A DNA stretch of 15,340 bases from Candidatus Zixiibacteriota bacterium (GTDB lineage: Bacteria; Zixibacteria; MSB-5A5; CAIYYT01), in contig JBECKX010000173.1 in the NCBI GenBank assembly GCA_040235515.1, forward strand, positions 1 through 15,340, read 5' to 3'. Positions 1 through 14,556 of this stretch are shown here, piece by piece (the first letter of the stretch is position 1; each line of letters starts with the position of its first letter). Under the pieces are notes generated by a model, which was not told the origin of the DNA, ran no database searches, and saw only the letters and a list, made by a program, of their open reading frames with translations. The position numbers and the translations under genes are program-made.

Positions 1-821
1 TCAGACTTACCGAGTAACTCGTGCGGGTCTTCATAGTAAGTGATGGCTTTCTGGATATCTCCTTCAAGTCCATGCACCGCCAGATTCATCTTGGCCAGGC
101 GGATGGTGGTCGCGTTTTTTTCCAGACCCCGGAAAGTGAGTTTCTCGACCGGGTTTTCATCACGCCGCTCCACGAACCTGGCGCTCTGTACAAACATCCC
201 ACCGGAGCCACAAGCTGGATCTAAAACAGTGCCGCCCTCCGGCTCAAGGACATTGGCAATAAGTGACACCAGCGAAACGGGGGTGAAGAACTCACCGTTA
301 TCGTGTGCCTTAAGATCGGCAAATTGAGTCAGGAAGTACTCATAGATGCGACCGAACACATCACCGGATGCTTTCTTTAGTTCTTCGGGATTTAGCGTAC
401 GAAGCAATTGCCCCAGGACGGCGTTGTCCAATTCCTGATACTCGTTCTTAGGCAGAACACCGCGAAGATTGTCATAATCGGACTCGATAGACTCCATCGC
501 TTCAATGATAGCTTTGGCGCGATCATCGCTATCGGTCAACGCCACGAGGTAGTCAAACTGCGCCTTCGGTCGAACGAAGATTGCGCTTTTCTGAGAGAAG
601 TCTTCCTTGATCAGCTCTCGAACCTTGCCTCCGCGTTTGGGCAGGCCGGGTTCGATTTGTTCCTTCACCACAAGGAACCGGCGATAGGCATGTCGAAGGA
701 AAATCAAGCCCATTACCGGAAGGAAATACTCATTACTCGCATAGTTGGAATTGGCCCGAAGAGTGTCGGCGGCATTCCAAAGTCGTTTCTCTATTGCTTC
801 AATATGCTCAAGGTGGGCCAT
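1..821 (-). CDS. hsdM: Type I restriction-modification system methyltransferase subunit M (5' part; runs off the left edge)
   Basis: Manual translation from ATG at 821 stays open to the window edge: MAHLEHIEAIEKRLWNAADTLRANS...DVFGRIYEYFL...GEFFTPVSLV...VLDPACGSGGMF...LAKMNLAVHG. The N-terminal LW.AAD.LR, GEFFTP and SAM-binding motif I (DPACGSG) are typical of HsdM. It is absent from the ORF track because its stop is outside the window. Confidence 0.95.
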   Translation of the reverse strand, partial: MAHLEHIEAIEKRLWNAADTLRANSNYASNEYFLPVMGLIFLRHAYRRFLVVKEQIEPGLPKRGGKVRELIKEDFSQKSAIFVRPKAQFDYLVALTDSDDRAKAIIEAMESIESDYDNLRGVLPKNEYQELDNAVLGQLLRTLNPEELKKASGDVFGRIYEYFLTQFADLKAHDNGEFFTPVSLVSLIANVLEPEGGTVLDPACGSGGMFVQSARFVERRDENPVEKLTFRGLEKNATTIRLAKMNLAVHGLEGDIQKAITYYEDPHELLGKS

Positions 822-822
822 A

Positions 823-1071
823 CTACCTGCTTCCCCCAAAATGCTTTTTCAGTAGTTGTTTGCCTTGATCCCCCAGGTCCTGAAGCAGGTCCTCAATCTG
901 TTTCAACGCCAAAGGCGATGGCTTTGAACGGCCGTTTTCCCAACGATTGATCGTGGGAAAAGAAACCCCCAGCTTCTGAGCAAGCTTCTCCTGCGTCAGC
1001 CCCAACGTTTGACGCAGCTGAAATATCAAATCAGCCGAATCGGTGTTGGGGCCATTACTTTGAGATTTCAA
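823..1071 (-). CDS. XRE/Cro-family helix-turn-helix regulator (controller-like), 82 aa
   Basis: LRQTLGLTQEKLAQKLGVSFPTINRWENGRSKP is an HTH_3 signature. TTG start with AGGAG upstream; the stop lies 1 nt before the hsdM ATG. Confidence 0.9.
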   Translation of the reverse strand: MKSQSNGPNTDSADLIFQLRQTLGLTQEKLAQKLGVSFPTINRWENGRSKPSPLALKQIEDLLQDLGDQGKQLLKKHFGGSR

Positions 1072-1115
1072 TATGTCTCTCCTGATTGGGGCCTCCGGGA
1101 TCGGTCATCACATGC

Positions 1116-1131
1116 TATAACAAACGTTATA
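1116..1131. promoter_or_regulatory. Palindromic operator candidate TATAAC-N4-GTTATA upstream of the XRE-hsdM unit
   Basis: Perfect 6-bp inverted repeat about 45 nt upstream of the XRE start. On the minus strand it overlaps a TG-n-TATAGC extended -10-like sequence, and TTGACA lies at 1142-1147 with non-canonical spacing. Confidence 0.5.
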
Positions 1132-1185
1132 AAACTCCTGTTGTCAAGGGTTTGTTGAAGAATGTGAGATTGGCCTGATTTGGGC

Positions 1186-1222
1186 AAAAAAACGAGGACT
1201 TAAGAACAAGTCTTAAGCCCTC
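1186..1222 (-). terminator. Rho-independent terminator of the annealase-exonuclease-DUF932 unit
   Basis: Minus strand GAGGGCTTAAGA-CTTGT-TCTTAAGTCCTC (12-bp stem with one G-U pair) followed by GTTTTTTT. Confidence 0.8.
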
Positions 1223-1311
1223 TTGGGGTGTGTTCCCATTCAACCTGTCGCATTTGATTGACAATTGAAGGAGAAACGGTGGCCTGAAATGGATTCCAGG
1301 CCGGGAAAGAA

Positions 1312-2373
1312 CTAATCGATGGATTTCAGTAGTGCCCCTGCTCGACGCTCGAGGTTTACCCGAACATCGGTGTGGGGCAGCTGACGAGCGTGGGCAGTAA
1401 GTCCCTGCACCATGCCCCAGAGTGTGGAGACGTCGTCACCTTCATTTCGACCAGTTCGCCATCCGGCGATGATCTCCAAACCGGTGAATGGCTTCTCCTT
1501 GAACCATTCAGTGACTTTGTCCAGATTGTCACCGACTTTCAGCCGTGTGGCTTCGTCGACTCCTCGGGTGATTGCCTCGGTAGCCATGCGATTCTCCACA
1601 AATCGGTTCAGAGCCGGTAAGGCGTCAGACCGAAAGCGGTCTATTGCCTTTGACCGATGGACAATCTTCAGTTCCTGGACCTGCTCGGCACCCCACACAA
1701 TGTGGTTGCCACAGACATAGTTATACAGGAATGTGGTAAGGCCGAATGTGCAAGCCCCCGTTTCCGAGTTCCAGCAGAAGAATCCACGGCCGAGCTTGGC
1801 ATTGCCGACCTCGATGGGATTCTCGTCGTTTACGAAGAACGCGAACATATCGCGATCAGAGGCATACAGGCCTGCGTTGTCGGACCCTCCGTTATTTCGG
1901 GCGGGCGGCACTCGCCAGCCCGTCCCTTCAACGGCGTCTTTCAAAGAAGCCACTACGTCTGCATCCCAGATACGTCCGTACTTCGGTCCAGTGAATGCCG
2001 ACACGACTCGGTCTCCGGTTCCGCTTCGAAACAACAGCTTTGCCTGAGTGTCTCGCTTGTCAAGGCTGTGCCTGAGACATTCAATTACTGTTTCTGGCGG
2101 CAACGTGCGAAGGTATTTCGCAGGTGCGCCAACGGCGGTGCAGAGTTGGTTGAAAGACCAATTGGTCAGAATGGCTGGTTCTTCGGAGCCGTTCAGGGCT
2201 ATGCCCGAATGACCGGTGACATCGAGATGGACCTCTGGAAGTCCGCGCACCTTTTCCTCGGATGCGTCCTTAAGACGCTGAGTAAAGATCTGCAGACTGT
2301 CCAGGTCGTGGAACCTCTCGTCAGGTGGTCGGATGCACCATTGACGATGAGCATCATATAGATTCGAAGACAT
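1312..2373 (-). CDS. DUF932-like phage/plasmid/ICE protein, about 353 aa
   Basis: Motifs W..RP.DERF, YGRIWDADVV, LYASDRDMF.F and RGFF.WNSETG...Y.YVCGNH..WG resemble DUF932-family proteins. Start moved from 2526 to ATG 2373 because GGAGG lies 5 nt upstream and the longer ORF overlaps the nuclease gene. Confidence 0.75.
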   Translation of the reverse strand: MSSNLYDAHRQWCIRPPDERFHDLDSLQIFTQRLKDASEEKVRGLPEVHLDVTGHSGIALNGSEEPAILTNWSFNQLCTAVGAPAKYLRTLPPETVIECLRHSLDKRDTQAKLLFRSGTGDRVVSAFTGPKYGRIWDADVVASLKDAVEGTGWRVPPARNNGGSDNAGLYASDRDMFAFFVNDENPIEVGNAKLGRGFFCWNSETGACTFGLTTFLYNYVCGNHIVWGAEQVQELKIVHRSKAIDRFRSDALPALNRFVENRMATEAITRGVDEATRLKVGDNLDKVTEWFKEKPFTGLEIIAGWRTGRNEGDDVSTLWGMVQGLTAHARQLPHTDVRVNLERRAGALLKSID

Positions 2374-2446
2374 CATTACCTCCATGTTTGAATTTCTGTT
2401 TGGGATTTCTGTTAGGAGAAAGGCGAGCCTGCAAATACTAGCCCGC

Positions 2447-3232
2447 TCATCCCCTCCAACGTCGGCAGGGTTCTGCGAATTCGCAGTTGCCGCATTGCCA
2501 CCCGTAGTTGGGGTGATAGTAGCCACTGCTTATTGATCTGCAGACCGACTTGGCAAGGTGAAAGAACCGGACCATGTCTGACTTGTCTCGGAGCACCTCG
2601 ACTGACTGTAGTCGTGGATTCTTAGTCTTGGTGACAACATCAATTCGCAGGTTCGGCTCGCGGTCATAGAGAATGCGATAGGCATACCCATAGGCCGTGA
2701 GTTGCAAGTGATTCAGGATCGTAAGATTGTCATAGGCTCGGGCCGCTGTCTTGGTCTCGACAACGGTGTCCTCGGCTTCGAGAAGATCGAAGTAGCCATC
2801 AAGTGGCAATCCCAGATCTTCACCGGTTTCGAGGTCGACAAGCGGCACACGAAACGGAACCTCCGTGTCGTTAACCGGCTTGCCTCGGTAGCCCCTGACA
2901 TAGGCGCTGGCGAGTTTTCCTCCGACTTGTACTACGTCTTCGAGTGACTCGCCATTTTTGAACCTCAACTTCTCCTCAGCCTGCGCGCGTAGGTCTGCTG
3001 TCAGAATCCTGGCAACATCCTCAGCACTCGGAGACGAACCGTTCTTCCTGCGTTTGTGCCACCATTCAACTGCGGCGTGAAATGCGGTGCCAAGCGCCAA
3101 TTCAATTGGCTTGAATGGGCGTGGCAGCTTGTCCACATACACGAAGCGGTATTTGAGCGGACACATCAGGTAGAGGTTGATCTGCGATACTGAGACATGA
3201 TCTGTTGGATGACCGTTCCGATTGGTATTCAA
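2447..3232 (-). CDS. PD-(D/E)XK nuclease, RecB/AddB/Cas4-like exonuclease with a predicted 4Fe-4S staple
   Basis: S.SQ...Y..CP..Y, GTAFH, E...G.FDL...VVETKT (D-E-x-K), QL..Y and C-terminal CxxCxxxxxC give four Cys. The TTG start overlaps the upstream TGA (TTGA), with GAGGAGG upstream. Confidence 0.88.
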   Translation of the reverse strand: MNTNRNGHPTDHVSVSQINLYLMCPLKYRFVYVDKLPRPFKPIELALGTAFHAAVEWWHKRRKNGSSPSAEDVARILTADLRAQAEEKLRFKNGESLEDVVQVGGKLASAYVRGYRGKPVNDTEVPFRVPLVDLETGEDLGLPLDGYFDLLEAEDTVVETKTAARAYDNLTILNHLQLTAYGYAYRILYDREPNLRIDVVTKTKNPRLQSVEVLRDKSDMVRFFHLAKSVCRSISSGYYHPNYGWQCGNCEFAEPCRRWRG

Positions 3233-3921
3233 AACGGCACCTCCTCGGCCGGCTTGGCTGCGTTGACCATCTCGTCGATCAGGATGCTCGCTTTGCCTTT
3301 GGTTATCTGTTCCAACGACTCGACACCAGCTTTCTCAAGCAGGTGTCGGTGAGCGTCGTCGCCTTCGATCTGCCGTTCGGCCAGGAGCCGGAATAAGTAC
3401 CGGCGCTGAGCATCGGTCATAGGAGAATCGGAGCTGCTTGATTGCTCTGACTCGGCCTGTGGCCTTGATCTACTCCTCACGCCGGGAATCCTGTTGTTCC
3501 CGTGATTGGGCTGCGGTTCAGTCGAACCGCCGCCATTGGTCGGTCGGCCATTTCCCTCCAGGGCCAACTCCTCGATCGACACGACACCGATGTTCACGGC
3601 GTCACGGAGTGCCCTCGCTTTCGCGCGGGTCTCTGCCATCCGGATGATGTGAGGGATAATCCTCGACGCGACATTATCCGGGCTTGCATCGCCGTGACCC
3701 TTGTAAATACCGCTCTCGGTTTCCACAATGGCCAAAAAGACGGCGGTGTGACCGTTCGCTTCCTCGGGAAGCTGCACCAGCGCGGTCTCGATCTTCTTGA
3801 GACCCTGGTCGTGAGCCAGGCTCAACAAGCCCGCATACGTGACAACATCCTCGGTCGCGATTACTCGGCCCTGACGATCCTTGATTTCAATCGTCTTCAC
3901 CAGACTGCCATTTCCAGACAT
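3229..3921 (-). CDS. Putative single-strand annealing protein (Rad52/Sak/Erf-like N-domain, low-complexity linker, small helical C-domain)
   Basis: V.YAGLL..AH, G.GDA and MAETRAKARALR.A..IG.....EE motifs resemble phage annealase cores. Strong AAGGAGGT RBS; translationally coupled to an exonuclease gene. Confidence 0.6.
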   Translation of the reverse strand: MSGNGSLVKTIEIKDRQGRVIATEDVVTYAGLLSLAHDQGLKKIETALVQLPEEANGHTAVFLAIVETESGIYKGHGDASPDNVASRIIPHIIRMAETRAKARALRDAVNIGVVSIEELALEGNGRPTNGGGSTEPQPNHGNNRIPGVRSRSRPQAESEQSSSSDSPMTDAQRRYLFRLLAERQIEGDDAHRHLLEKAGVESLEQITKGKASILIDEMVNAAKPAEEVPF

Positions 3922-3981
3922 ACTGACCTCCTTAGGTTTGGGGTGATTGTGAAAAGGACTGTTTTTGTGTGATCAGTCTGG

Positions 3982-4009
3982 ACCTTAGCAGGTCTGTATA
4001 GACCGTCAA
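3982..4009 (-). promoter_or_regulatory. Sigma70-like promoter for the annealase unit, overlapped by palindromes
   Basis: Minus strand TTGACG-N16-TAAGGT with an extended -10 TG. It is overlapped by GACCT-N4-AGGTC (3981-3994) and GGTCT-N4-AGACC (3991-4004). Confidence 0.55.
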
Positions 4010-4072
4010 TTGCCGGAGCCGGCAACAAACGAGCATCGACTAGAAGCAGAATCTCTGGTAAGGTGTCGCGAT

Positions 4073-5371
4073 ATGAAGGATCAGGGCGTTACCATTTTGG
4101 GCGAGACAAACTACCGAAATCAGCGGAAGCGGTTTGGGATCAAGGATCATGACCGACAACGGCATGTTTACGTCGTCGGACAGACCGGAATGGGCAAATC
4201 TACCCTCTTGCTAAACATGCTGGTTCAGGACGTACAGCGTGGTAAGGGTGTAGCCCTGATAGACCCGCATGGCGACTTGGCGGAGCAGCTGTTAGATCAT
4301 ATCCCCCAGAGACGAATGACCGATGTCATCTACATCAACCCGGCTGACACTGAATATCCGGTAGGGCTAAATCTGCTGGATGGCGATAGATCTGCCGGGC
4401 GCCATTTGATCGCCTCTCATCTGGTTGACATTTTCAAGAAGATCTGGTCTGATTCCTGGGGGCCACGACTGGAGTACATCCTCAGAAACACAATTCTCGC
4501 GCTCCTTGAGTGCGGTGGGCACACGCTGCTTTCGATTCCCAGATTGCTTATAGATCCCGAATTCAGGGCGGTTGTGTTGAGCCGAGTGCAAGACCCGGTT
4601 GTCCGCACCTTCTGGCAGGTGGAATACGAGCTGTACCCGAAGGTGTTCCGAACGGAGACAATATCCCCTATTCAGAACAAGGTTGGTCAGTTCTTATCGG
4701 TGCCAGTGATGCGGAATATCCTCGGACAAACCCAAAACAGGGTTGATTTCCGCTCGGTAATGGATTCTGGCAGGATTTTGATCGTAAACCTGGCCAAAGG
4801 GCGGCTCGGAGAAGACAACACAAGCCTTCTGGGATCACTCATCGTCTCCAAGCTGTTCCTGACAGCCATGTCGCGGTCAGATACACCGCAAAGCCAGCGA
4901 AAGTCATATACTGTGTATATTGACGAATTTCAAAGTTTCGCATCAGACAACTTCGCCCACACACTCTCTGAAATGCGCAAATTTGGCCTCCATTTGGTCT
5001 TGGCGCACCAATACCTAGCCCAACTACCTTTACAGCTCAAATCGGCTGTATTCGGCAATGTGGGCACAACTATAACATTTCGGATCGGGGCTGAAGACGG
5101 AGAATACTTAGAACGCGAATATTGGCCCACTTTCAGGGCCTCAGACCTGCAATCGCTATCCGCATATGATATCTACGTCAAGCTCTCAATTGACGGAAAA
5201 ACGACTGACGCCTTCAGCGCCCGGACATTGCCGGAACCGGTTTTATATGAAAACCACCGTGACGCCATTGTCCAGCTGACACGTATACGCTACGGAGATG
5301 AAAAGTCAGCCGTTGAACATCGAATAGAGACCTGGATGGCCGATCCAATTAGAGCCCTTTGTGAGGGATAG
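4073..5371 (+). CDS. VirD4/TraD/TrwB-like (FtsK-HerA superfamily) P-loop ATPase without an N-terminal membrane anchor, about 432 aa
   Basis: DRQRHVYVVGQTGMGKS (Walker A), IDPHGD, VYIDEFQ (Walker B), SEMRKFGLHLVLAHQYLAQL and GNVGT..FR. ATG 4073 (AAGGTG upstream) is preferred over TTG 4010. Confidence 0.88.
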   Translation: MKDQGVTILGETNYRNQRKRFGIKDHDRQRHVYVVGQTGMGKSTLLLNMLVQDVQRGKGVALIDPHGDLAEQLLDHIPQRRMTDVIYINPADTEYPVGLNLLDGDRSAGRHLIASHLVDIFKKIWSDSWGPRLEYILRNTILALLECGGHTLLSIPRLLIDPEFRAVVLSRVQDPVVRTFWQVEYELYPKVFRTETISPIQNKVGQFLSVPVMRNILGQTQNRVDFRSVMDSGRILIVNLAKGRLGEDNTSLLGSLIVSKLFLTAMSRSDTPQSQRKSYTVYIDEFQSFASDNFAHTLSEMRKFGLHLVLAHQYLAQLPLQLKSAVFGNVGTTITFRIGAEDGEYLEREYWPTFRASDLQSLSAYDIYVKLSIDGKTTDAFSARTLPEPVLYENHRDAIVQLTRIRYGDEKSAVEHRIETWMADPIRALCEG

Positions 5372-5528
5372 ATATAGTACTAAGTCTGGGATGAAATTGC
5401 GAACGATGAAGATCAATGTGAGGCGTTTCTTTGGCTAACACAAGCCTCATAACTCATTGTCCCTGAATAGGCAAATGGCTCCTGGACTGGCTCTCTCTAA
5501 AAGGCTATGCGGGATACCACTCTGCTCG

Positions 5529-5556
5529 GAGCGATGTTTGACTGAGAACATTGCTC
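5529..5556. terminator. Stem-loop between the convergent ATPase and DUF5677-like genes
   Basis: GAGCGATGTT-N8-AACATTGCTC, a 10-bp stem with one G-U pair on the + strand. There is no U-tract, so a terminator role is uncertain. Confidence 0.3.
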
Positions 5557-5572
5557 ATGTAACAATCTCAGC

Positions 5573-6352
5573 TCATATTGGCCAGCAATCTCGTACGTCC
5601 TTATCAGTCCAAGAGTTAAATTCCTTTCCAAATAGCCTCATTAGGCAGTCGAGAAATATGTCCGCATATCGGAATACACCGCCGACATCCTGAGGTAGTG
5701 ATTTTGCAGTCCATAGCATGCCATCAGCATGCACCCGGAGAAAGCGATCGGCAAGTCGAACATCTGCATGAGTAAACGATGAGAGGTCTGCATAAAATAC
5801 GTCATAGGGCTCTTCGTGATCGACTTCAACCGCCATTTCTCGAATCGACTTTCCAGACCAATTGCGATGACCGGAACCGAAAAAAGTTGATTTTGCAGAT
5901 TCAAACTTCGATTCAATCTCTACTTCTCTCGGTTCCCATTCGTGCTTCCAAGCTGTGTTCATTGCCTCGCGCCAGTCGGCTTTTCTTGATTCGCGGTGCT
6001 TACCCCAAGCGTCCATTTGCTTCTTCTTGAGTATTGATTCAAACCTAATGTAACGATTAGCTCGATTGACACGATCTTGAGTAATGTAGTGGCTCGTTAC
6101 ATCAATCTCGAACATGGGGCGGACGATTGTATATCCCACAGTCGTGGGGAACCAATCTTCACCGAAAGCTTTATATAAAGCCTCCAGGCTTCTGGCTGCT
6201 GTCATGCTATGAATTAAGAAGCAAGCCATGAGAGAATGATATTCAGGGCCTGCGGGGTGGATTTCCTTTATGGAGGAAGCTGTTTCCGCCAGCTTAAGCA
6301 ATCGTGAAAGAATCTCCCTGTGTTGCTGATTTGTCAATCCTGGTATTGCCAT
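5573..6352 (-). CDS. DUF5677-like all-helical protein (possible HEPN-related fold), about 259 aa
   Basis: R.MFE.....YI, W.GKSIREMA and Y...Y..LS.FTH patterns. ATG 6352 has GGAG 6 nt upstream (the ORF track uses TTG 6364). Visibly more AT-rich than the host genes. Confidence 0.6.
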   Translation of the reverse strand: MAIPGLTNQQHREILSRLLKLAETASSIKEIHPAGPEYHSLMACFLIHSMTAARSLEALYKAFGEDWFPTTVGYTIVRPMFEIDVTSHYITQDRVNRANRYIRFESILKKKQMDAWGKHRESRKADWREAMNTAWKHEWEPREVEIESKFESAKSTFFGSGHRNWSGKSIREMAVEVDHEEPYDVFYADLSSFTHADVRLADRFLRVHADGMLWTAKSLPQDVGGVFRYADIFLDCLMRLFGKEFNSWTDKDVRDCWPI

Positions 6353-6465
6353 AACTATCTCCAATACCTAATTAGCCTTTTAACCTTAGCAATGTAAAAT
6401 AACTGGCTTTCAGGTGTCCGACAAGCTATATTTATAACTGAACACTCGAATCAAGGATGATGCCT

Positions 6466-6639
6466 ATGCCGAGAGAAAAAACGACCCATACGAAGCCGAA
6501 GATGATTCACATTCGACTGAGTGAGGAGCTTCACCAACAACTGCGAATACAGGTGGCCAAAGAGAATCAGACCATTCAGGACTGGGTGGAACAGCTAATC
6601 GATAAGAATGTCAAACCGGGGCGAGGGAAGCAGTCTTGA
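6466..6639 (+). CDS. Ribbon-helix-helix (CopG/Arc/ParG-like) DNA-binding protein
   Basis: KMIHIRLSEELHQQLRIQVAKENQTIQDWVEQLID is an alternating beta strand followed by two helices. AAGGA lies 8 nt before ATG 6466 (alternative ATGs at 6457 and 6460). Confidence 0.75.
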   Translation: MPREKTTHTKPKMIHIRLSEELHQQLRIQVAKENQTIQDWVEQLIDKNVKPGRGKQS

Positions 6640-8219
6640 GTCCAGTCAATGGTGAAAAGAAACGTTGCTACGTTTATGCGAGGCTATCCACGGAGGACCA
6701 GCACCGTCGCGTCGAATACTCGTCGCTTGAGAGTCAGGAAAAGGTTTGCAAAGCTTACATCGCCAGCCAGGAGCCGAACGGCTGGAAGTATGTGACGACA
6801 ATCAAAGACCTCAGCTCTGGGGGCAGCACCGACCGGCCTGGATTGAGCGAGCTACTCGAACATATCAAGCAGAACAAAGTTGATGTGGTCGTTACGACCA
6901 AGATGGATCGGCTGACCAGGAATATCAAAGATTTCTGGACACTCTACGAAATCATGCAGGAGCATGATTGCCAGTTCGTCTGCGCCACACAGGAACTCAA
7001 CTCCACGACCGCTCACGGCCGTTTCTTCATCAATATCCTCATGAGTTTCGCAGAATTCGAACTTGAGACCATCAGGGAAAGAACCCGCGCCAAGATGTTG
7101 TCGCAGGCCGAAGAGGGTCTCTGGCACGGTGGACGGGCTCCTTTCGGCTACGAACGCCATAAGGATAGGAAGGGTCTGCTGATTCCACACAAGACAGAAG
7201 CTGCGGTTGTGAAGAAGATCTTCGATCTGTTCGTCAAGTTGGGATCACCGGCAGCCGTAGCCAAAGAAATCAATGGCATGGGATATCGGACCAAGAGTAA
7301 GAAAAAAACCAAATTCTCCAAGTGGACGATCACTTACATTCTGTCTAATCCGCTTTATATTGGGAAGACGACCTTTGGGGGTCAGAGCTTTGAAGGCAAA
7401 CACAAAGCGCTTGTCCCGGTCATTCGGTTCAACCACGTGCAAAAGATGCTGGAAAAGAACAAACAGACGCGGACAGGTCCCACCCAGAACAAATACAATT
7501 TCCGGCTGAGGGGCATCCTCAAGTGCGGCGATTGTGGTTCGATGATGACACCGAGTCCTGCCAAGAGTGGACGCTACCTTTACTACCGTTGTACCCGTGT
7601 GTCAAAGTATTCGAAGGAAGAGTGCAAAGTCAGGAAGATTGGTGCTCGGGCGATTGAGGATGCGGTCGTTAACAAGCTGTGTGAGATCGGAACTGACGAA
7701 GCCGTCATCAAAGAAGCGGTTCGCAAGGCTAACAAGGATTCAGTGACCAATGCCAAGACCAAGACCAAAGAGCTGAATGCCCTGAAAAAGGAACTGAAGC
7801 CGGTTCAAGACTCAATTGACAACATGATCCGATACGTGGAGAAGCATGGGGACCTACCGAAAGCTATGTCTGACCGTCTCCCGGAACTGGAAACCCGAAA
7901 AGAACAACTGGAAACCCAGATTCAGCGTCTGGAATTCGAGATTGGACAACTCAAGGACTACCAAATCGACACTGAATTGCTTACGAAGACGCTGCAGGAC
8001 TTCCGGGCGATCTACAATGAACTGACTCCAGAGGAGCAGACTCGCCTGTTACAGCTTATGGTTCAAGAAGTTATCTTGGGTGAAGATACGCTGAAGATTT
8101 CTGTTTTTCCGCTTGGGGATTCTGAGAAGCCTCTGGAATACCTGCTGAAACATCCAGAGTTTGCTGAGAGTGATAAAAAGCGGGGTCGACGAGACTCGAA
8201 CTCGCGACCTCCTGCGTGA
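6636..8219 (+). CDS. Large serine recombinase (integrase), 527 aa
   Basis: YARLST catalytic Ser, SG...DRPGL, DRLTR, FAEFE...I.ER, G.W.GG..PFGY, IL.NP.YIG, zinc ribbon CGDCG...YYRC...C and a coiled coil. The TTG start overlaps the RHH stop. Confidence 0.95.
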   Translation: MSPVNGEKKRCYVYARLSTEDQHRRVEYSSLESQEKVCKAYIASQEPNGWKYVTTIKDLSSGGSTDRPGLSELLEHIKQNKVDVVVTTKMDRLTRNIKDFWTLYEIMQEHDCQFVCATQELNSTTAHGRFFINILMSFAEFELETIRERTRAKMLSQAEEGLWHGGRAPFGYERHKDRKGLLIPHKTEAAVVKKIFDLFVKLGSPAAVAKEINGMGYRTKSKKKTKFSKWTITYILSNPLYIGKTTFGGQSFEGKHKALVPVIRFNHVQKMLEKNKQTRTGPTQNKYNFRLRGILKCGDCGSMMTPSPAKSGRYLYYRCTRVSKYSKEECKVRKIGARAIEDAVVNKLCEIGTDEAVIKEAVRKANKDSVTNAKTKTKELNALKKELKPVQDSIDNMIRYVEKHGDLPKAMSDRLPELETRKEQLETQIQRLEFEIGQLKDYQIDTELLTKTLQDFRAIYNELTPEEQTRLLQLMVQEVILGEDTLKISVFPLGDSEKPLEYLLKHPEFAESDKKRGRRDSNSRPPA

Positions 8220-8254
8220 CAGGCAGGCATTCTAACCAACTGAACTACGACCCC
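8181..8254 (-). tRNA. tRNA-Asp (GTC), CCA not encoded
   Basis: GGGGTCG/CGACCCC acceptor stem, D-arm GTTC-AGTTGGTTA-GAAT, anticodon arm CCTGC-CTGTCAC-GCAGG, T-loop TTCGAGT, discriminator G. Confidence 0.97.
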
Positions 8255-8340: not shown

Positions 8341-8406
8341 TCGTGACTTTTCGCTCTCAGCGGCGATTCTGATTCGAGTCCCCGACAGATCTTAACTCGA
8401 TAAAAA

Positions 8407-8480
8407 TGGGCGGTACTGGATTCGAACCAGTGACCCCCTGCGTGTAAAGCAGGTGCTCTAACCAACTGAGCTAACCACCC
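8407..8480 (-). tRNA. tRNA-Val (TAC), CCA not encoded
   Basis: GGGTGGT/ACCGCCC acceptor stem, anticodon arm CCTGC-TTTACAC-GCAGG, T-loop TTCGAAT, discriminator A. Confidence 0.97.
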
Positions 8481-8561
8481 AATCGTGAATCATCAGCCCT
8501 CTAAAACAGCAGTCCCAGCAGTGACCGCTCTGCAGCCCAATGCTGGGAATCTGTTTCAGAC

Positions 8562-8590
8562 GATATATAGTACGCGTTGCCACATGTCAA
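8562..8590 (-). promoter_or_regulatory. Sigma70 promoter of tRNA-Val
   Basis: Minus strand TTGACA-N17-TATATC, about 80 nt upstream of the tRNA. Confidence 0.6.
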
Positions 8591-8638
8591 GAGCGCTCGC
8601 GCACAAATTTGTCGATCAAGTACTTGTCAGCGAATCAA

Positions 8639-8875
8639 CTAGCTGCCGCTCTCGGTACCCTCGGCCGGCTTGTCCTTTATCATGATGCCGACCGGAATCA
8701 GCACACAATAACCGAGCACGAGGAGAATCGGCGCCAGCGTGATCGAACCGGATGCCAGAGTGATGAAACCGAGGATGATCGAAACCAACCCCGCACCCAG
8801 TATCATCCAGTTCTTCTTGCCGAACGGAGCCTCATCAGCTCGCGTTGCGACTTTCGCTTTCTTCATCTTAGCCAT
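8639..8875 (-). CDS. DUF3098-like small membrane protein, 78 aa
   Basis: FGKKNW.ILG.G...IILGF and ITLAPILLVLGY motifs; two hydrophobic helices. Confidence 0.75.
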   Translation of the reverse strand: MAKMKKAKVATRADEAPFGKKNWMILGAGLVSIILGFITLASGSITLAPILLVLGYCVLIPVGIMIKDKPAEGTESGS

Positions 8876-9114
8876 AGATTGTCTTCCTTCGACAGGCGTC
8901 GAATATTGGCAATAATCGAGACCACGTCAAGTTATTTGATCCGGCTGCCCGTGACAACTCTGTCACCGTGGTACTCTTTATAGTCGGCAACAGGCCCCAT
9001 AGTCTCAACTTTCTCGTGATCAGCCGGTCAATCGGTCGGGAGGAAGGCAATTCGCTTGTAGCGACACCAAAGACCGGTATCTTTGCGCTGAACTTCAGAG
9101 ATCAGCACTAGATC

Positions 9115-10590
9115 ATGCAGAAACGAGCAATTCTAAAGACATACCGACTGCCTCTCTTCGGCGCCGCTATTTTTCTGCTCCTGCTCTCGCTGGGCTTCTT
9201 CGAACGCAGGATTCACAACGACGAGGCCTGGATCGGGCAGCAGGTGCTCTCACTAACCACTGATGGAGTGGTGATTTCCGAACTATTCGGCGATCTCCCG
9301 CCGCTTGACCGGGAGATAGTTGTCTACCACAAGCTACTGGTGTGGGCGGGAGTTCTCGATTCGAAGATTTTCGGCTGGGGTTTATACCAGCTCAGGGCGA
9401 TCTCGGCAGTCTCAGGGCTGCTGCTGCTGTTCATGATCTTTACATTCCTGCGGGGGCGAGAATCCCCCAACCTGGCGGCCTTCACTCTCCTGATCCTGAT
9501 GTTCGCTCCGATATACTGGGAGCAAATGCTTGAGTTTCGTCCCGAAGCGTTGCTTGTGCTGTGTGGGGGATGCGGGTTTCTCTTGCTGTGGCGTGCGTTC
9601 GAAATCGAATCGTGGCGGCTCTATTTCATCGCAGGCTTACTCTCCGGTCTTGCGGGACTTACGCATGCTTTCGGATTCGCCTGCGTGGTCGCCGGCATTG
9701 TTGCATTGCTGGTAACACGAAAGTGGATCGGAGCGATAATCTTTGGTATCGCCGGCGCGGTCGCATTCGCGCCCTACCTCTCCGGCTACTTCTCCACACC
9801 GGAATTGTTCCATCAGCAAATGTTTGACAATCCCCTGATGACCACACATTTCGACTACAAGTGGTGGCACCTGTTCACGAACCTGGTCGAGGAGCACAAA
9901 CGAATCCTGCGCAAGCCGGAGGTCATCGGACTGACAATCTCATTCCTGTTGGCGCTGCCGCTCGTACTGAAGGAGCAATGGAAAACCTTCAGGTTGCCCA
10001 TCCTCTATCTTGCCGGGCTATTCGCCGTTATCGGGATATCTCCGTTGCCGAAATTCACTCGCTACATGATTCCGCTGGTTCCGGTGATGGCCATTATCAT
10101 CGCACAGGTATGGGTCAATCTTTCGGAGGGCAAAACTCGTGGGCGGCGCTGGATCTCTGTGCTGTTCCTGCTCTGGCAGGTCGTCTTCTTCGGCTATGGT
10201 ACATTCGCGCTGTTGCGAGAGGCTATCCCCGATCGTTATGATCAACTCGCCACCAACGAGGCAATGCTCCATGAGATGCGTCTCGGCACTAAAGTGATCG
10301 CGCCGTTTGATTTCGTTTATCCTGCAGACCCGGAGATGCAGATCTACTCCTGGTGGGGTGCAATCGAACATGATGATTCAAGGCATGATATTGCTGGATT
10401 GGAGCACTACGCCGACTCTCTCGGCATCGACTACCTGATAATCGGCCCGGAGGCGATTGACCACTGGGGATTGCAGGGAAGCGAACGCGAGGGTCAATTC
10501 AGCAGATTCGAATTGCGCGAATCTTACTCGACCGGCTCTACGGAGCCAAGATACCTGATGAAACGCAAGTCAGCCGCGCTGGAGCAGTAG
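9115..10590 (+). CDS. ArnT/PMT-like (GT-C fold, family 39/83) membrane glycosyltransferase, 491 aa
   Basis: DE motif after the first TM helix (HNDEAW), R.E motif (FRPE), RY..PL.P and many TM helices. Its 3' end overlaps gmhA convergently by 21 nt. Confidence 0.75.
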   Translation: MQKRAILKTYRLPLFGAAIFLLLLSLGFFERRIHNDEAWIGQQVLSLTTDGVVISELFGDLPPLDREIVVYHKLLVWAGVLDSKIFGWGLYQLRAISAVSGLLLLFMIFTFLRGRESPNLAAFTLLILMFAPIYWEQMLEFRPEALLVLCGGCGFLLLWRAFEIESWRLYFIAGLLSGLAGLTHAFGFACVVAGIVALLVTRKWIGAIIFGIAGAVAFAPYLSGYFSTPELFHQQMFDNPLMTTHFDYKWWHLFTNLVEEHKRILRKPEVIGLTISFLLALPLVLKEQWKTFRLPILYLAGLFAVIGISPLPKFTRYMIPLVPVMAIIIAQVWVNLSEGKTRGRRWISVLFLLWQVVFFGYGTFALLREAIPDRYDQLATNEAMLHEMRLGTKVIAPFDFVYPADPEMQIYSWWGAIEHDDSRHDIAGLEHYADSLGIDYLIIGPEAIDHWGLQGSEREGQFSRFELRESYSTGSTEPRYLMKRKSAALEQ

Positions 10591-11160
10591 TTTCTCGGTC
10601 AATTGCGCCAGCAGGTGGAGCGCAAAGATATGCTCCTCCTGAATACGCATCGTTGATGTGGATGGCACCGCGAGTGAGAGATCAACCAATGATGCCGTGG
10701 CACAACCTTTTTCCCCGAACATCCCGATCGTCACCAACCCTTTCTCTCTGGCGCACGCAAATGCCTTGAGGATATTCGCAGATGATCCAGAAGTCGATAG
10801 TCCGATGAAGACGTCTCCTTTGTTTCCAAGCGCTTCTAACTGACGCGCAAAGATTTGATCGAAGCCAAAATCATTTGAACACGCCGTCAGCAGTGAGGTG
10901 TCTGTGGTGAGGGCAATTGCAGCCAGCGCCTGCCGATTCGCCTCGGAAGTCAAGCGTACTACGAACTCTGTGGCAAAGTGCTGGCTATCGGCGGCAGAAC
11001 CGCCGTTGCCTGCGATCAGTATCTTCCCGCCGGCAGCAAGAGTCCTGGCGAGTTGCTCAGCTGCTGAGAGCAACCAGCGCTCTCGCTCTGTTGCGAATTC
11101 CTGCCTGATGCGGATCGAGGTCTCCACCGCCTCGGCAACTATCTGTTTGGGATCATGCAC
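10570..11160 (-). CDS. gmhA: D-sedoheptulose 7-phosphate isomerase
   Basis: GNGGSAADSQHFATEF, NDFGFDQIFARQ, STSG.S.N and RIQEEHI...H. Confidence 0.93.
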   Translation of the reverse strand: MHDPKQIVAEAVETSIRIRQEFATERERWLLSAAEQLARTLAAGGKILIAGNGGSAADSQHFATEFVVRLTSEANRQALAAIALTTDTSLLTACSNDFGFDQIFARQLEALGNKGDVFIGLSTSGSSANILKAFACAREKGLVTIGMFGEKGCATASLVDLSLAVPSTSTMRIQEEHIFALHLLAQLTEKLLLQRG

Positions 11161-11171
11161 TGCGGCCGCCT

Positions 11172-11954
11172 CTACTCGACACGGGGAAACGGCTGAGTGA
11201 CGGCCTCGCGGGGACCTGTATGAATCGCGTCGGCAAACTCGGTGAAAAGTGGCAGATGGTTCTGTTCCTCAAAGCGGTTCCCCACTACCACAAAGCTGGC
11301 GCCGGCTTCAACTTTGGCGCGCGCTTCCTCCGGCTGCCTGATACCCCCTCCGCAGATGATCGGGAGCGGCACATACGCCGCCGTCGCTGAGATAATCTTC
11401 TCCGGGACTGAGTGTATCGCACCCGAACCGGCTTCGAGATACACCATCTTCATCCCCAGGTACTGGGCTGCCAGGGCATGAGCCTTGACTATATCGGGCT
11501 TGTGCCGGGGGATCGGATGAGTATGCGACAGATATTCAACTGAAGTACGAGCACCGGATTCGATCAGCATATACGCGGTCGGGATGGCTTCCAGCCCATA
11601 CTGTCGCACCAGCGGAGCACCCTTTACCTGTTCACCGATCAGGTACTCCGGATTGCGCCCTGAGAGCAGCGAAGTAAACAATATTGCATCCGCACCGCGA
11701 CACACCTGGCCCGATCCACCGGGGAAGATGATAATCGGCAGGGTCACACGCTGCTTGATCTCGCGGATGATCGCCTCCATCAGGTCGGAGAAGATCAGCG
11801 AGCCGCCGATCAACAATGCATCAGCCCCCCCCTGCTCCGCCTGCTCAGCGCACTCGACCAGGTTGGCTTTGCCATGCTCACCCGGGTCAAGCAGTGTCAG
11901 GAATCCCGCGCCCTTCCGGCGCGCGGACTCCATTAGCTTGTCAAAGATTGACAT
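11172..11954 (-). CDS. Geranylgeranylglyceryl/heptaprenylglyceryl phosphate synthase (PcrB family, group II-like)
   Basis: LLDP, GGS, IIFPG, SLLSGRNPEYLIGEQ, YLEAGSGA and GGGIR...GA..VVVGN. Confidence 0.92.
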   Translation of the reverse strand: MSIFDKLMESARRKGAGFLTLLDPGEHGKANLVECAEQAEQGGADALLIGGSLIFSDLMEAIIREIKQRVTLPIIIFPGGSGQVCRGADAILFTSLLSGRNPEYLIGEQVKGAPLVRQYGLEAIPTAYMLIESGARTSVEYLSHTHPIPRHKPDIVKAHALAAQYLGMKMVYLEAGSGAIHSVPEKIISATAAYVPLPIICGGGIRQPEEARAKVEAGASFVVVGNRFEEQNHLPLFTEFADAIHTGPREAVTQPFPRVE

Positions 11955-11961
11955 ATGATTC

Positions 11962-14556
11962 TTACTTCGCGTTTCCCTGCAAGTGTGACAGCACGAATTC
12001 CTTGAAGGTGTTCAAATCGATTGACTTCCGCAGCGATCCCTGTGTTATCGTCGGACGCCCACCGCCGCGTCCCTCAAACTCGGCATTGATTGCCTTGCTG
12101 AGTTCCTGCGGTTTGACACCATCCTTGATGCTTTGCTGTGATGAAATAATTGCATAATGCCCTTCATCATTTACGAACGCACCCAGGAGAGCCGCGGCTT
12201 CATCACGAATTCGCTCCTCGTATACCTTAACAACTTCCTTAGAGGTAAGAGAGTCAACAAGAACCTTGGTGCCATTGATATCGGTTGCTTTGCTGTTGAA
12301 GAGTTCGAGAATCTGCGCGGCGGCGTTTTGCGCCTCAATCTTCTCCAGTTGCTTCCGCAGCTTCTTGTTCTCCTCGAGCAGGTCGTTGAACTTCGCGCTG
12401 ATTTCCTCAACCGGAAGCTTGGCTGTCTGCGCCATTTCCTCGATCTGGCGTTCCCGGGAACGCAGATAAGCCAGCGCTCCCTCGCCGGTCAGCGCTTCGA
12501 TGCGCCTGATGCCGGCGGCAATCGCTGATTCCGAGGCGATCACGAAGAGCCCGATCTCGCCGGTGGCCTGTACATGCGTACCGCCGCACAGCTCGCGCGA
12601 GTAGACGTCATTAGCGCCTTCATCACCCACCGTCACCATGCGGACGCGGTCACCATACTTCTCGCCGAAAAGCGCCATTGCACCCTTCTGCCTGGCTTCA
12701 TCGAATCCATACTCACCCCATTGCACCGGGTAGTTTTTCAGAATCTGCTCATTGACGAGACGCTCCACTTCCGCAATTTCCTCAGGGGTCATCCCCTTGT
12801 GATGCGAGAAATCGAAACGCAACCGATCAGGAGCAACCAACGAACCTTTCTGTTGCACATGTTCTCCCAGTACGGTCCTGAGCGCCTTGTGCAGGAGATG
12901 CGTGGCGGTGTGGTTGCGCTGAGTATGTTTCTGGCGTTCGCCGTCCACCGCGGCGCTGGCGGTTTTGCCTATCAGTTTCTTCGGATCGTCGACTTCACCC
13001 CTAACGACATGCACGAGTGAGTCGCCGACTTTCTGGGTGTCGACAACCTGGTAGACCGTGCCGTCAATCGATAGTACGCCGACATCCCCGATCTGGCCAC
13101 CGCTCTCGCCGTAGAAGGTTGTTTCATCGAGGACGATATGAAGTGTATCTCCCTTCTGCTCGGCGAACTTGACTTCGCTCTCAAGCATGAAGCTGTCATT
13201 GTAACCCTTGAAAGTTGACCCCGGCAGGTTACCGCTGAATGTTGTCTCGAAACTCGCACCGGCGCGTGAGCGCTCGCGTTGCTCCTTGAGACCATCCTCA
13301 AAGCCGGCCATGTCGACACTCATGCCGCGTTCACGCGCCATCACTTGTGTCATATCGACCGGGAAACCGTAGGTGTCGTAAAGCTTGAACGCTTCGTCAC
13401 CCGGAAATACCTGCTTGCCCTCCTTCTCCAGCTTGCTGATGATCTTCTCGAAGATCCCGAGTCCGCGATCAAGCGTCTCGTTGAAACCCTCCTCCTCCGT
13501 CTTGATCACCAGGCTAACATGTTCAGCCTGCTGTTTGATTTCGGGGAAGGAGTCACCCATCTCATCAACCAGTACCGAAGTGAGCTTGTAGATGAACGGC
13601 TGAGTCTGATCGAGCAGCCTGCCGTGCCGTGCGGCTCTGCGCAGAATGCGGCGCAGTACGTAATCGCGTCCTTCGTTCCCGAAGTTGCCGCCATCAGCAA
13701 TCGAGAAGGTCAAGGCGCGTATGTGATCAGCAATTACCCTGTGCGACACGCCACGCTGGTCTTCATGGTATGGCTTGCCGGTAAGGTCGACAATCTTTGC
13801 GAGAAGTGGTTTGAACAGGTCTGTGTCATAGTTGGACTCAACCTTCTGCAGCACCATAGCCATGCGTTCGAGTCCGGCGCCGGTGTCGACGGATGGCTTC
13901 GGCAGCGGAGTCATCCTGCCATCGGCATCGCGATCGAACTGCATGAAGACCAGATTCCAGATCTCCATAAATCGGTCGCCATCATCGTTGACAGTGGCGT
14001 TCTTGCCATACTGTTCACCACGATCGTAATGGACCTCCGAGCAGGGACCGCAGGGGCCGGTTTCGCCCATCGACCAGAAATTGTCTTTCTCGCCGAAGCG
14101 GAGGATACGGCCATTTTTCAGTTCGGGTGCAATCTTGCCCCACAGCTCGAACGCTTCATCATCATCGGTGTAGACGGTGGCATAGAGGCGGTCCGGTGAC
14201 AGCCCGAGGTCTTTGCGCAGAAACTCCCAGGCAAATTTGATGGCATCCTCTTTGAAGTAGTCGCCAAATGAGAAATTGCCCAGCATCTCGAAAAAGGTAT
14301 GATGCCGTGCCGTCTGTCCCACGTTCTCGAGGTCGTTATGCTTGCCGCCTGCACGCATACATTTCTGCGAAGTCGTCGCACGCCTGTAGTCCACCTTGCG
14401 TTGTCCAAGGAAGACATCCTTGAACTGGTTCATGCCGGCGTTGGTAAAAAGCAGCGTGGGGTCATCGCGAGGAATCAGCGGCGATGATGGCAAACGCTTG
14501 TGATTGTGCTTTTCAAAGTATGATAAGAAAGCTTCTCTGATTTCTGCGGCTTTCAA
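11962..14556 (-). CDS. alaS: Alanine--tRNA ligase
   Basis: DPTLLFTNAGMNQFK, RHHTFFEMLGNFSFGDYFK, GPCGPCSE, DTGAGLER, editing motifs HTATH and CGGTH, and C-terminal GRGGG. Confidence 0.99.
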   Translation of the reverse strand: MKAAEIREAFLSYFEKHNHKRLPSSPLIPRDDPTLLFTNAGMNQFKDVFLGQRKVDYRRATTSQKCMRAGGKHNDLENVGQTARHHTFFEMLGNFSFGDYFKEDAIKFAWEFLRKDLGLSPDRLYATVYTDDDEAFELWGKIAPELKNGRILRFGEKDNFWSMGETGPCGPCSEVHYDRGEQYGKNATVNDDGDRFMEIWNLVFMQFDRDADGRMTPLPKPSVDTGAGLERMAMVLQKVESNYDTDLFKPLLAKIVDLTGKPYHEDQRGVSHRVIADHIRALTFSIADGGNFGNEGRDYVLRRILRRAARHGRLLDQTQPFIYKLTSVLVDEMGDSFPEIKQQAEHVSLVIKTEEEGFNETLDRGLGIFEKIISKLEKEGKQVFPGDEAFKLYDTYGFPVDMTQVMARERGMSVDMAGFEDGLKEQRERSRAGASFETTFSGNLPGSTFKGYNDSFMLESEVKFAEQKGDTLHIVLDETTFYGESGGQIGDVGVLSIDGTVYQVVDTQKVGDSLVHVVRGEVDDPKKLIGKTASAAVDGERQKHTQRNHTATHLLHKALRTVLGEHVQQKGSLVAPDRLRFDFSHHKGMTPEEIAEVERLVNEQILKNYPVQWGEYGFDEARQKGAMALFGEKYGDRVRMVTVGDEGANDVYSRELCGGTHVQATGEIGLFVIASESAIAAGIRRIEALTGEGALAYLRSRERQIEEMAQTAKLPVEEISAKFNDLLEENKKLRKQLEKIEAQNAAAQILELFNSKATDINGTKVLVDSLTSKEVVKVYEERIRDEAAALLGAFVNDEGHYAIISSQQSIKDGVKPQELSKAINAEFEGRGGGRPTITQGSLRKSIDLNTFKEFVLSHLQGNAK

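Follow-up and report, generated by a model that had tools for sequence, protein, structure and literature searches.

A Serine-Integrase Island at tRNA-Asp in Candidatus Zixiibacteriota and Its Relaxase-Bearing Sisters

The Integrase-Side End of an Element at tRNA-Asp

The 15,340-nucleotide window analyzed here is an entire contig from a Candidatus Zixiibacteriota genome (G000:C35:1-15340), and its positions 1–8219 hold one end of an integrative element inserted at a tRNA-Asp gene. In our view this is probably the integrase-side end of a family of elements that, in complete relatives, carry MobC-type relaxases and VirD4-like ATPases but no mating pore, and that are likely mobilized through the pore of another conjugative element. 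We use G000 for the window's own genome, other G-numbers for other genomes of the phylum, C for contigs, and L-numbers for loci, including metagenome loci. Because the window is a whole contig, it breaks the element off at its first position, within hsdM. Open reading frame (ORF), tRNA, and family scans found each gene named in an earlier, sequence-only reading of this DNA at the position given there, and they agreed with it that relaxase, VirB, and phage structural genes are absent from positions 1–8219. Near-identical proteins bear NCBI labels that assign the host group to Zixibacteria.

The large serine recombinase gene (6636..8219, forward strand) encodes 527 amino acids (aa) in its integrated form, with Resolvase, Recombinase, and zinc-ribbon domains and the catalytic Y-x-R-x-S serine at Ser18; the integrated form is 517 aa long in sister elements. 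Its start is overlapped by a ribbon-helix-helix (RHH) gene found by the family scan (6457..6639, forward strand), and its final 14 codons are the antisense strand of the target gene, host tRNA-Asp(GTC) (8180..8254, reverse strand), which is left intact. Further into the element, a 432 aa anchor-less VirD4/TrwB-like ATPase (ATPase1; 4073..5371, forward strand; TrwB_AAD_bind 43.2 bits, cut-off 20.5) diverges from an operon on the reverse strand. This operon encodes a 230 aa single-strand annealing protein without a Pfam match (3229..3921), a PD-(D/E)XK nuclease with an AddB/Cas4-type four-cysteine iron-sulfur (Fe-S) motif (2447..3232; PDDEXK_1 92.6 bits, cut-off 22, E 4.9e-26), and a 353 aa DUF932 protein of the YubP/UPF0380 family (1312..2373; PF06067), the start of which, at about 2373, was set from homologs and a ribosome-binding site. 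A terminator-like hairpin with a 12 bp stem and a T run (1194..1222, reverse strand; consensus match only) lies 3′ of the DUF932 gene and closes the operon. A promoter scan returned 2 sites, against 4.6 expected.

The tRNA-Asp gene of the window is wholly host-type. It is identical to that of the same-genus genome G004, in which we found no match to the window's integrase or ATPase, and the two sequences diverge just beyond its 3′ end. The crossover therefore lies at the extreme 3′ end, and we rejected a crossover in the anticodon loop. A 22-nucleotide element-side attachment (att) arm (8154–8175), one of a symmetric pair, and a crossover core, GCGG (8180–8183), together form the att feature (8154..8183, forward strand), and an inverted copy of the arm is found at the far end in sister elements, 46.3 kb away in G218, 74.4 kb away in G001, and 77.8 kb away in G168. 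Four matches of at least 18/22 were found in 348 kb, compared with 0.005 for shuffled arms, and every match lay behind the same core.

When the two ends are joined on paper, the predicted attP falls inside the integrase gene, and the circle would add a tail of 33 codons to it; integration would therefore remove a 33-residue tail. The tail reading frame is exactly 33 codons long, with a conserved motif, in 7 of 15 far-end copies. The locus thus supplies a serine integrase whose attP and attB sites are predicted to lie at a conserved tRNA end and whose tail is predicted to depend on integration. The same overlap of integrase gene and att site was described for DsiB (McMurdie 2011; PMC3146451), the CcrB-like large serine recombinase of the Dehalococcoides ssrA islands; its gene and attL/attP overlap where a structural RNA ends (3′), and the islands form tandem arrays. 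The authors of that study proposed that the recombinase may be complete only on the circle. Our family differs from those islands in its tRNA-Asp target, in having no DsiA/ParB/Mom module, and in carrying relaxases and coupling ATPases. The word tRNA does not occur in the main text of PMC10083194.

Several loci carry traces of repeated use of this site. Tandem far-end att arms with tail frames (G218:C1:510900-517170, G208:C6:209800-217030, and G001:C4:92239, 142956, and 156099) represent stacked past integrations at tRNA-Asp, and the frame of a different serine recombinase in G001 runs on naturally into the tail. Degenerate tRNA-Asp-like repeats, in which the anticodon arm is swapped for another hairpin, lie just 3′ of the intact tRNA at G004:C19:31560-32110 and G012:C2:355603, and a degenerate tRNA-like copy at G218 517,131-517,166 is probably an older remnant.

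Sister Islands and the Relaxase Arm

The element in G001 is inserted at the same tRNA-Asp and shares 89% DNA identity with the window over positions 1–5346. Across the sisters, element DNA is 86%–90% identical and the encoded proteins are 87%–98% identical to those of the window, and the integrase is 88%–97% identical in 7 other genomes from 3 other families, adjoining tRNA-Asp in all six loci where a tRNA was found. Host AlaS, in contrast, is only 52% identical between G000 and G001 or G218, which indicates that the element has spread horizontally between families in recent times. The RHH protein is 83%–100% identical beside the sister integrases, and a related RHH gene also stands beside a tyrosine integrase at the transfer-messenger RNA (tmRNA) gene on G000:C142; it is likely a regulator that forms part of the integration module.

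Leftward extension, which the sequence-only reading had called for, failed in G000 itself, as its assembly holds no match to the remainder of hsdM, to the relaxases, or to attL, and the left part of the element is absent from it. The sisters supplied what the window could not, namely the far-end att arm and the relaxases. Beyond the point at which the window ends, the G001 element continues with a full type I restriction-modification (R-M) system, HTH_36, XRE, RuvC, Replic_Relax, cargo, a second VirD4-like ATPase (ATPase2), a second Replic_Relax, and a zinc-ribbon membrane protein, and an XRE-RuvC-Replic_Relax-ATPase2-Replic_Relax arm is present in G001, G132, G218, and G188. In the near-identical sisters, which measure 46–78 kb between att sites, two relaxases of family PF13814 and ATPase2 lie 14–33 kb away. 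The relaxase matches exceed the Pfam cut-off, and an N-terminal winged helix-turn-helix and a PD...E-x-D-x-G-T motif are kept across 29 copies; a table in PMC5357655 equates PF13814 with MobC. The element had been proposed to be compact and free of a relaxase, but its closest relatives are neither: with two Replic_Relax relaxases and a further VirD4-like ATPase in sister islands, the family cannot be called relaxase-free. The element is real, yet more conventional than first proposed.

We also weighed the possibility that this is a standard integrative and conjugative element (ICE) or a prophage, with pore or virion genes further left or too divergent for detection. The left part of the window copy is indeed unassembled, and a few unannotated membrane genes without Pfam matches follow the second relaxase in G218. 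These genes are not conserved across the family, however, and neither VirB4, VirB6, capsid, portal, nor terminase families were found among the scanned ORFs of G218 (46 kb) and G001 (74 kb), which are complete from att to att; capsid, portal, terminase, and tail genes were likewise absent from the Pfam-scanned ORFs of the G001, G016, G005, and G218 elements. A complete type IV secretion system or prophage module further left, which the sequence-only reading had said would overturn its proposal, is thus missing from the complete sisters, though a relaxase was found, and we regard a standard ICE or prophage as very improbable.

The block of ATPase, annealase, exonuclease, and DUF932 genes that had been proposed to define an integrative-element family proved to be syntenic across many Zixibacteria. 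In 16 element regions, which were chosen for carrying these genes and are not a random sample, we counted the ATPase in 16, Replic_Relax in 15, DUF932, the annealase, and the serine recombinase in 14 each, RuvC in 13, the nuclease in 12, XRE in 11, and a tyrosine integrase in 9. Among 285 unselected genomes of the phylum, the annealase occurs in 24 and PF13814 in 45. PF13814 is present in 17 of the 24 annealase-positive genomes and in 28 of the 261 others, and of 37 annealase matches, 16 share a contig with it; in each of these PF13814 lies downstream of the annealase in the same orientation, in 15 cases within 14–33 kb; in both comparisons related genomes are not independent. Many of the annealase matches that lack PF13814 on the same contig are near contig ends, which does not account for G096:C4, G046:C13, and four partial matches in G143.

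The serine integrase did not hold up as a marker of the family. In most other members its place is taken by a tyrosine integrase, at tRNA-Arg, -Leu, -Met, -Gly, or tmRNA (G016:C64 lies between direct repeats of tRNA-Arg), and a more distant serine recombinase is present inside the element; G168 is a mosaic in which a window-type integrase sits on another backbone. The internal large serine recombinase of the tyrosine-integrase members G016:C64, G005:C235, G006:C2/C13, G010:C6, and G060:C5 is 24%–32% identical to that of the window; it lies between XRE/LexA and the second of two defense slots (described below), where the window's sisters hold Phage_rep_O/HTH_36, and its role could be in cargo swapping or resolution.

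Other relatives extend the range of the family. In a distant, high-GC metagenome clade (L192, L196, L198, L200, L203, and L205), the relaxase, ATPase1, annealase, and DUF932 genes form a co-directional run. These are compact relatives of about 8 kb, several of them beside a tyrosine integrase, and they come nearer to the minimal element first imagined, but with a relaxase. G000 itself contains a second, probably decayed member: G000:C142:35442-41667 carries a tmRNA, a tyrosine integrase (88% identical to that of G188), an RHH gene (78% to the window's), and cargo, and G000:C5:1-4564 carries an ATPase1 remnant cut by an insertion-sequence-like transposase and followed by DUF932 (52%); both contigs may belong to one element. 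An apparent cross-phylum transfer to Ignavibacteria was rejected, as the genome of L001 has the same coordinates as the phylum member G132, and a 9.4 kb contig labeled Pirellulales (L008; 91%–93%), possibly mis-binned, was left out of the counts.

Coupling ATPases and Possible Routes of Transfer

Both ATPases match VirD4-family coupling proteins (TrwB_AAD_bind/TraG-D_C). ATPase1, whose gene starts at 4073, has its Walker A motif at residue 36 and no hydrophobic or transmembrane (TM) segment in 13 of the 13 copies listed; its closest sequences in the Protein Data Bank (PDB) are DotL and TrwB. It forms a conserved clade of its own, with which the ATPase of the metagenome clade groups (SH-aLRT 85) in a quick tree with long branches among ATPase2. 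Its PHROGs match to a terminase family, in a search run on the window's genes only, spans 61 aa and covers only the P-loop. An N-terminal TM segment is present in 6 copies of ATPase2.

A MobC relaxase beside an element's own VirD4, without a pore, is a described design for mobilizable elements (PMC5357655, PMC5704250), and, judged on its sisters, the window's element appears to work like such an integrative and mobilizable element (IME). The streptococcal IME_Class_8 (IME_SsalCCHSS3_ND) and the MOBC1 plasmid CloDF13 have this arrangement (PMC5357655, PMC5704250, PMC7431656), and IME_Class_8 also has a serine integrase (PMC5357655). Unlike these compact systems, the elements described here are 33–78 kb long, carry two relaxases and two VirD4-like ATPases, have RuvC and a further ATPase, anchor-less and linked to an annealase/Fe-S nuclease/DUF932 operon, use interchangeable serine and tyrosine integrases at tRNA or tmRNA genes, and hold defense hot-slots.

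The steps of transfer can be pictured as follows. Excision by the serine integrase at the tRNA-Asp 3′ end would give the enzyme back its C-terminal tail of 33 residues, which is encoded at the element's far end. A Replic_Relax protein would nick a putative origin of transfer (oriT) near the XRE-RuvC-relaxase operon, and the element's own coupling ATPase or ATPases would pass the DNA to a helper pore, with ATPase1, which lacks an anchor, pairing with a partner in the membrane, either ATPase2 or the small zinc-ribbon/TM protein. On entry into the recipient, the DNA may be repaired or protected by an establishment module made up of the annealase, the Fe-S exonuclease, and DUF932, comparable to the bet/exo genes of IncC and SXT/R391, and the defense slots would repay the host for carrying the element.

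Our search for the pore itself was negative. With all candidates scored, VirB4 (TIGR00929) was not found in G218, G001, G016, G006, or G000, where the one weak match was the element's own ATPase2; PF03135 and PF04610 were absent from 5 near-closed relaxase-positive genomes; and no conserved pore-like or multi-pass membrane family was found among the 679 ORFs of the 16 element regions. Because the relatives carry relaxase and coupling genes and no pore, the islands likely hitch-hike on the conjugation machines of others. Relaxase and coupling genes are common in the phylum and mating-pore genes are rare, which presents a puzzle.

One answer would be that no classical mating pore is used, and that the two ATPases and small membrane partners form a DNA translocation machine of their own, or that host pili or cell contacts serve instead. 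The recent spread over four host families despite few VirB4 genes in the phylum fits this idea, as do the closed genome G218, which holds three such elements and no VirB4 or VirB6 match, and the retention of two ATPase paralogs, with ATPase1 as its own clade; Bacillus phages also have operons of MobC and a TM-less VirD4 without a pore (PMC3357382). The family has no conserved multi-pass membrane protein, however. Moreover, mobilizable elements routinely outnumber their helpers, which are transient and poorly binned in metagenome-assembled genomes (MAGs). IMEs are 40% more abundant than ICEs in the data of PMC5357655. We therefore consider pore-free transfer unlikely.

Alternatively, Replic_Relax and the ATPases might replicate or maintain the excised circle, with spread by transduction, vesicles, or transformation and with the annealase and exonuclease promoting recombination and cargo shuffling. 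PF13814 is named for replication-relaxation, a Phage_rep_O/HTH_36 initiator-like gene adjoins XRE in the window's sisters, RuvC and an annealase are typical of phage replication modules, and the G168 mosaic combines the window's integrase with a different backbone. In most copies, however, the relaxase directly adjoins the VirD4-like gene, which is the layout of a mobilization module, and the N-terminal TM segment of the 6 ATPase2 copies also speaks against a purely replicative role. In addition, none of 29 viral-contig annealase loci carried the element's ATPase, nuclease, DUF932, or relaxase. On this evidence, a role confined to replication and maintenance is improbable.

Mobilization through a helper pore, the reading we favor, has to contend with several observations that weigh against it. 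The relaxase arm of the window copy is not assembled, and this copy could therefore be truncated. VirB4-like matches are scarce in the phylum, at 3/285 (PF19044) and 7/285 (TIGR00929), none in an annealase-positive genome, with only 3–6 candidates per genome scored for these counts and with MAGs prone to lose plasmids. A circle-form integrase of about 548 aa was not among the 7 near homologs and 38 cluster members listed (the largest cluster being represented by 15 of its 41 members). In G001 and G132 both ATPases lack a predicted TM segment, which leaves the zinc-ribbon TM protein as a candidate anchor there, and TM-less coupling proteins were non-functional in CloDF13 and R388 (PMC7431656). 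Finally, ATPase1 is absent from some regions, the nuclease is found in only 12/16, and the annealase family extends beyond the element: among metagenome loci, only 19 of the 48 with room upstream have an adjoining ATPase there, and 17 of 42 have DUF932 downstream.

VirD4-like ATPases without a nearby pore are also known as orphan ATPases in Patescibacteria (PMC12102498), and in phage 0305phi8-36 a TM-less coupling-type ATPase stands beside a MobC-like gene (PMC3357382). Those are a chromosomal fixture and part of a lytic phage, respectively, whereas the ATPase described here is in a mobile island with an integrase, att sites, and relaxases.

The Annealase Operon and the Defense Slots

The AF2 model of the 230 aa protein has two domains. 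Rad52 and phage Sak were the best Foldseek rows for the N-terminal domain (E 4e-3 to 7e-3), and in VIA comparisons this domain scored Z 7.1 against Rad52 (102 aa, rmsd 4.6) and Z 6.0 against Sak, with double-stranded RNA-binding domains scoring equally; the C-terminal helical domain scored Z 7.5 against the C-terminal domain of lambda Red-beta (rmsd 2.0, 57 aa). Every Z is below 8 and the single scores are middling, yet both domains independently point to annealases, and by its modeled fold we assign the protein to the Rad52/Sak/Red-beta annealase superfamily.

The four cysteines of the nuclease (one N-terminal and three C-terminal) and its catalytic D/E-x-K are invariant in 12 of 12 element copies, in a layout that we take to be the AddB/Cas4 iron-sulfur arrangement. 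Further matches were to a PHROG exonuclease and, weakly, to TIGR00372 (Cas4); PDB sequence searches with the annealase, nuclease, and relaxase returned no match. The annealase's partner is thus a PDDEXK_1 nuclease with a four-cysteine motif and not a lambda-Exo/YqaJ nuclease, which sets the pair apart from lambda Red and SXT Bet-Exo. It resembles the hde operon ssb-bet-exo of IncC and SXT/R391, in which an annealase and an exonuclease also sit on a conjugation-related element (PMC7498323) and bet-exo was shown to mend breaks on entry. It differs in its Rad52/Sak-like annealase with a Red-beta-like tail, in its AddB/Cas4-type Fe-S nuclease in place of lambda Exo, and in residing on an element that has no pore of its own.

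The model of the DUF932 protein is confident (pLDDT 85), but the fold gave no Foldseek match at E ≤ 0.001 and no clear PDB match. Its best VIA score was Z 7.0, to a frataxin-like C-terminal half, and the weak alignment of residues 37–131 with RPA/Teb1 OB folds (Z 5.0–5.6) is only a hint. YubP/PF06067 is plasmid leading-region family 3, with a median position of 1 from oriT (PMC11541004), and by analogy the DUF932 protein is likely an establishment or anti-defense factor; here, in contrast to the plasmid genes, it lies 14–30 kb from the relaxase, and the family match is distant.

These features invite a bolder reading, in which the family is a self-spreading integrative class: relaxase-processed DNA would be moved without a VirB4-type pore by a pair of VirD4-like motors, the anchor-less motor would be coupled to an annealase/Fe-S exonuclease/DUF932 module for re-circularization, a gene-splitting attP would switch the integrase, and the whole would be the main defense-gene shuttle of Zixibacteria. 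We consider this unlikely. What is new here is the duplicated relaxase and ATPase, the anchor-less ATPase back-to-back with the annealase/Fe-S nuclease/DUF932 operon, the interchangeable integrases, and the two defense slots. We found no description of this backbone in literature on Zixibacteria relaxases, Replic_Relax integrative elements, DUF932, or large serine recombinases with tRNA and attP, judged largely by title and abstract and with few subscription papers covered.

The proposal that defense cargo is swappable was borne out in the sisters. Slot 1, between the RHH and ATPase genes, holds DUF5677 in the window (5573..6364, reverse strand; family scan), Pycsar in G001 and L164, DarTG in G132, Lamassu in G218, a short prokaryotic Argonaute with a TIR partner in G208, and a caspase with a TIR-like partner in G181. 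Slot 2, which follows the annealase operon, holds type I R-M in the window, type I R-M with IetAS in G001, DISARM in G218, and BREX in L164. In the window, slot 2 opens with the N-terminal 279 aa of hsdM (3..839, reverse strand; Pfam HsdM_N and N6_Mtase; PADLOC MTase_I E 3.5e-116), cut by the contig end and 98% identical to the full 710 aa hsdM of G001, and the R-M cassette is headed by an XRE/HTH_3 regulator gene (823..1071, reverse strand; 99% in G001) that likely encodes its controller protein. Through two fixed slots, many anti-phage systems are thus shuttled by a mobile backbone that recurs in about 24 of the 285 Zixibacteria genomes, as well as in distant clades from metagenomes. The slots are a ready source of candidate new defense genes. 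DUF5677 is one such candidate because its slot holds known anti-phage systems in the sisters; it had no PADLOC match at E ≤ 1e-15.

Other cargo was seen beside the slots. A cassette of vWA, vWA-like, PP2C, and kinase genes between the first relaxase and ATPase2 (G001:C4:200987-205204; L034:987-5204) is common to three elements, and the G001 element contains large heavy-metal efflux and copper/mercury-type cargo (G001:C4:156000-197200); a related metal cluster on G000:C79 (53%–80%) may belong to the window's element. On the other side of the insertion, the host genes of the window start past tRNA-Val, and the block at 8400–14556 comprises tRNA-Val, DUF3098, a PMT_2 glycosyltransferase, and then genes read by eye as gmhA, a PcrB-family gene, and alaS, in an order that is syntenic in G001, G218, G123, and G005.

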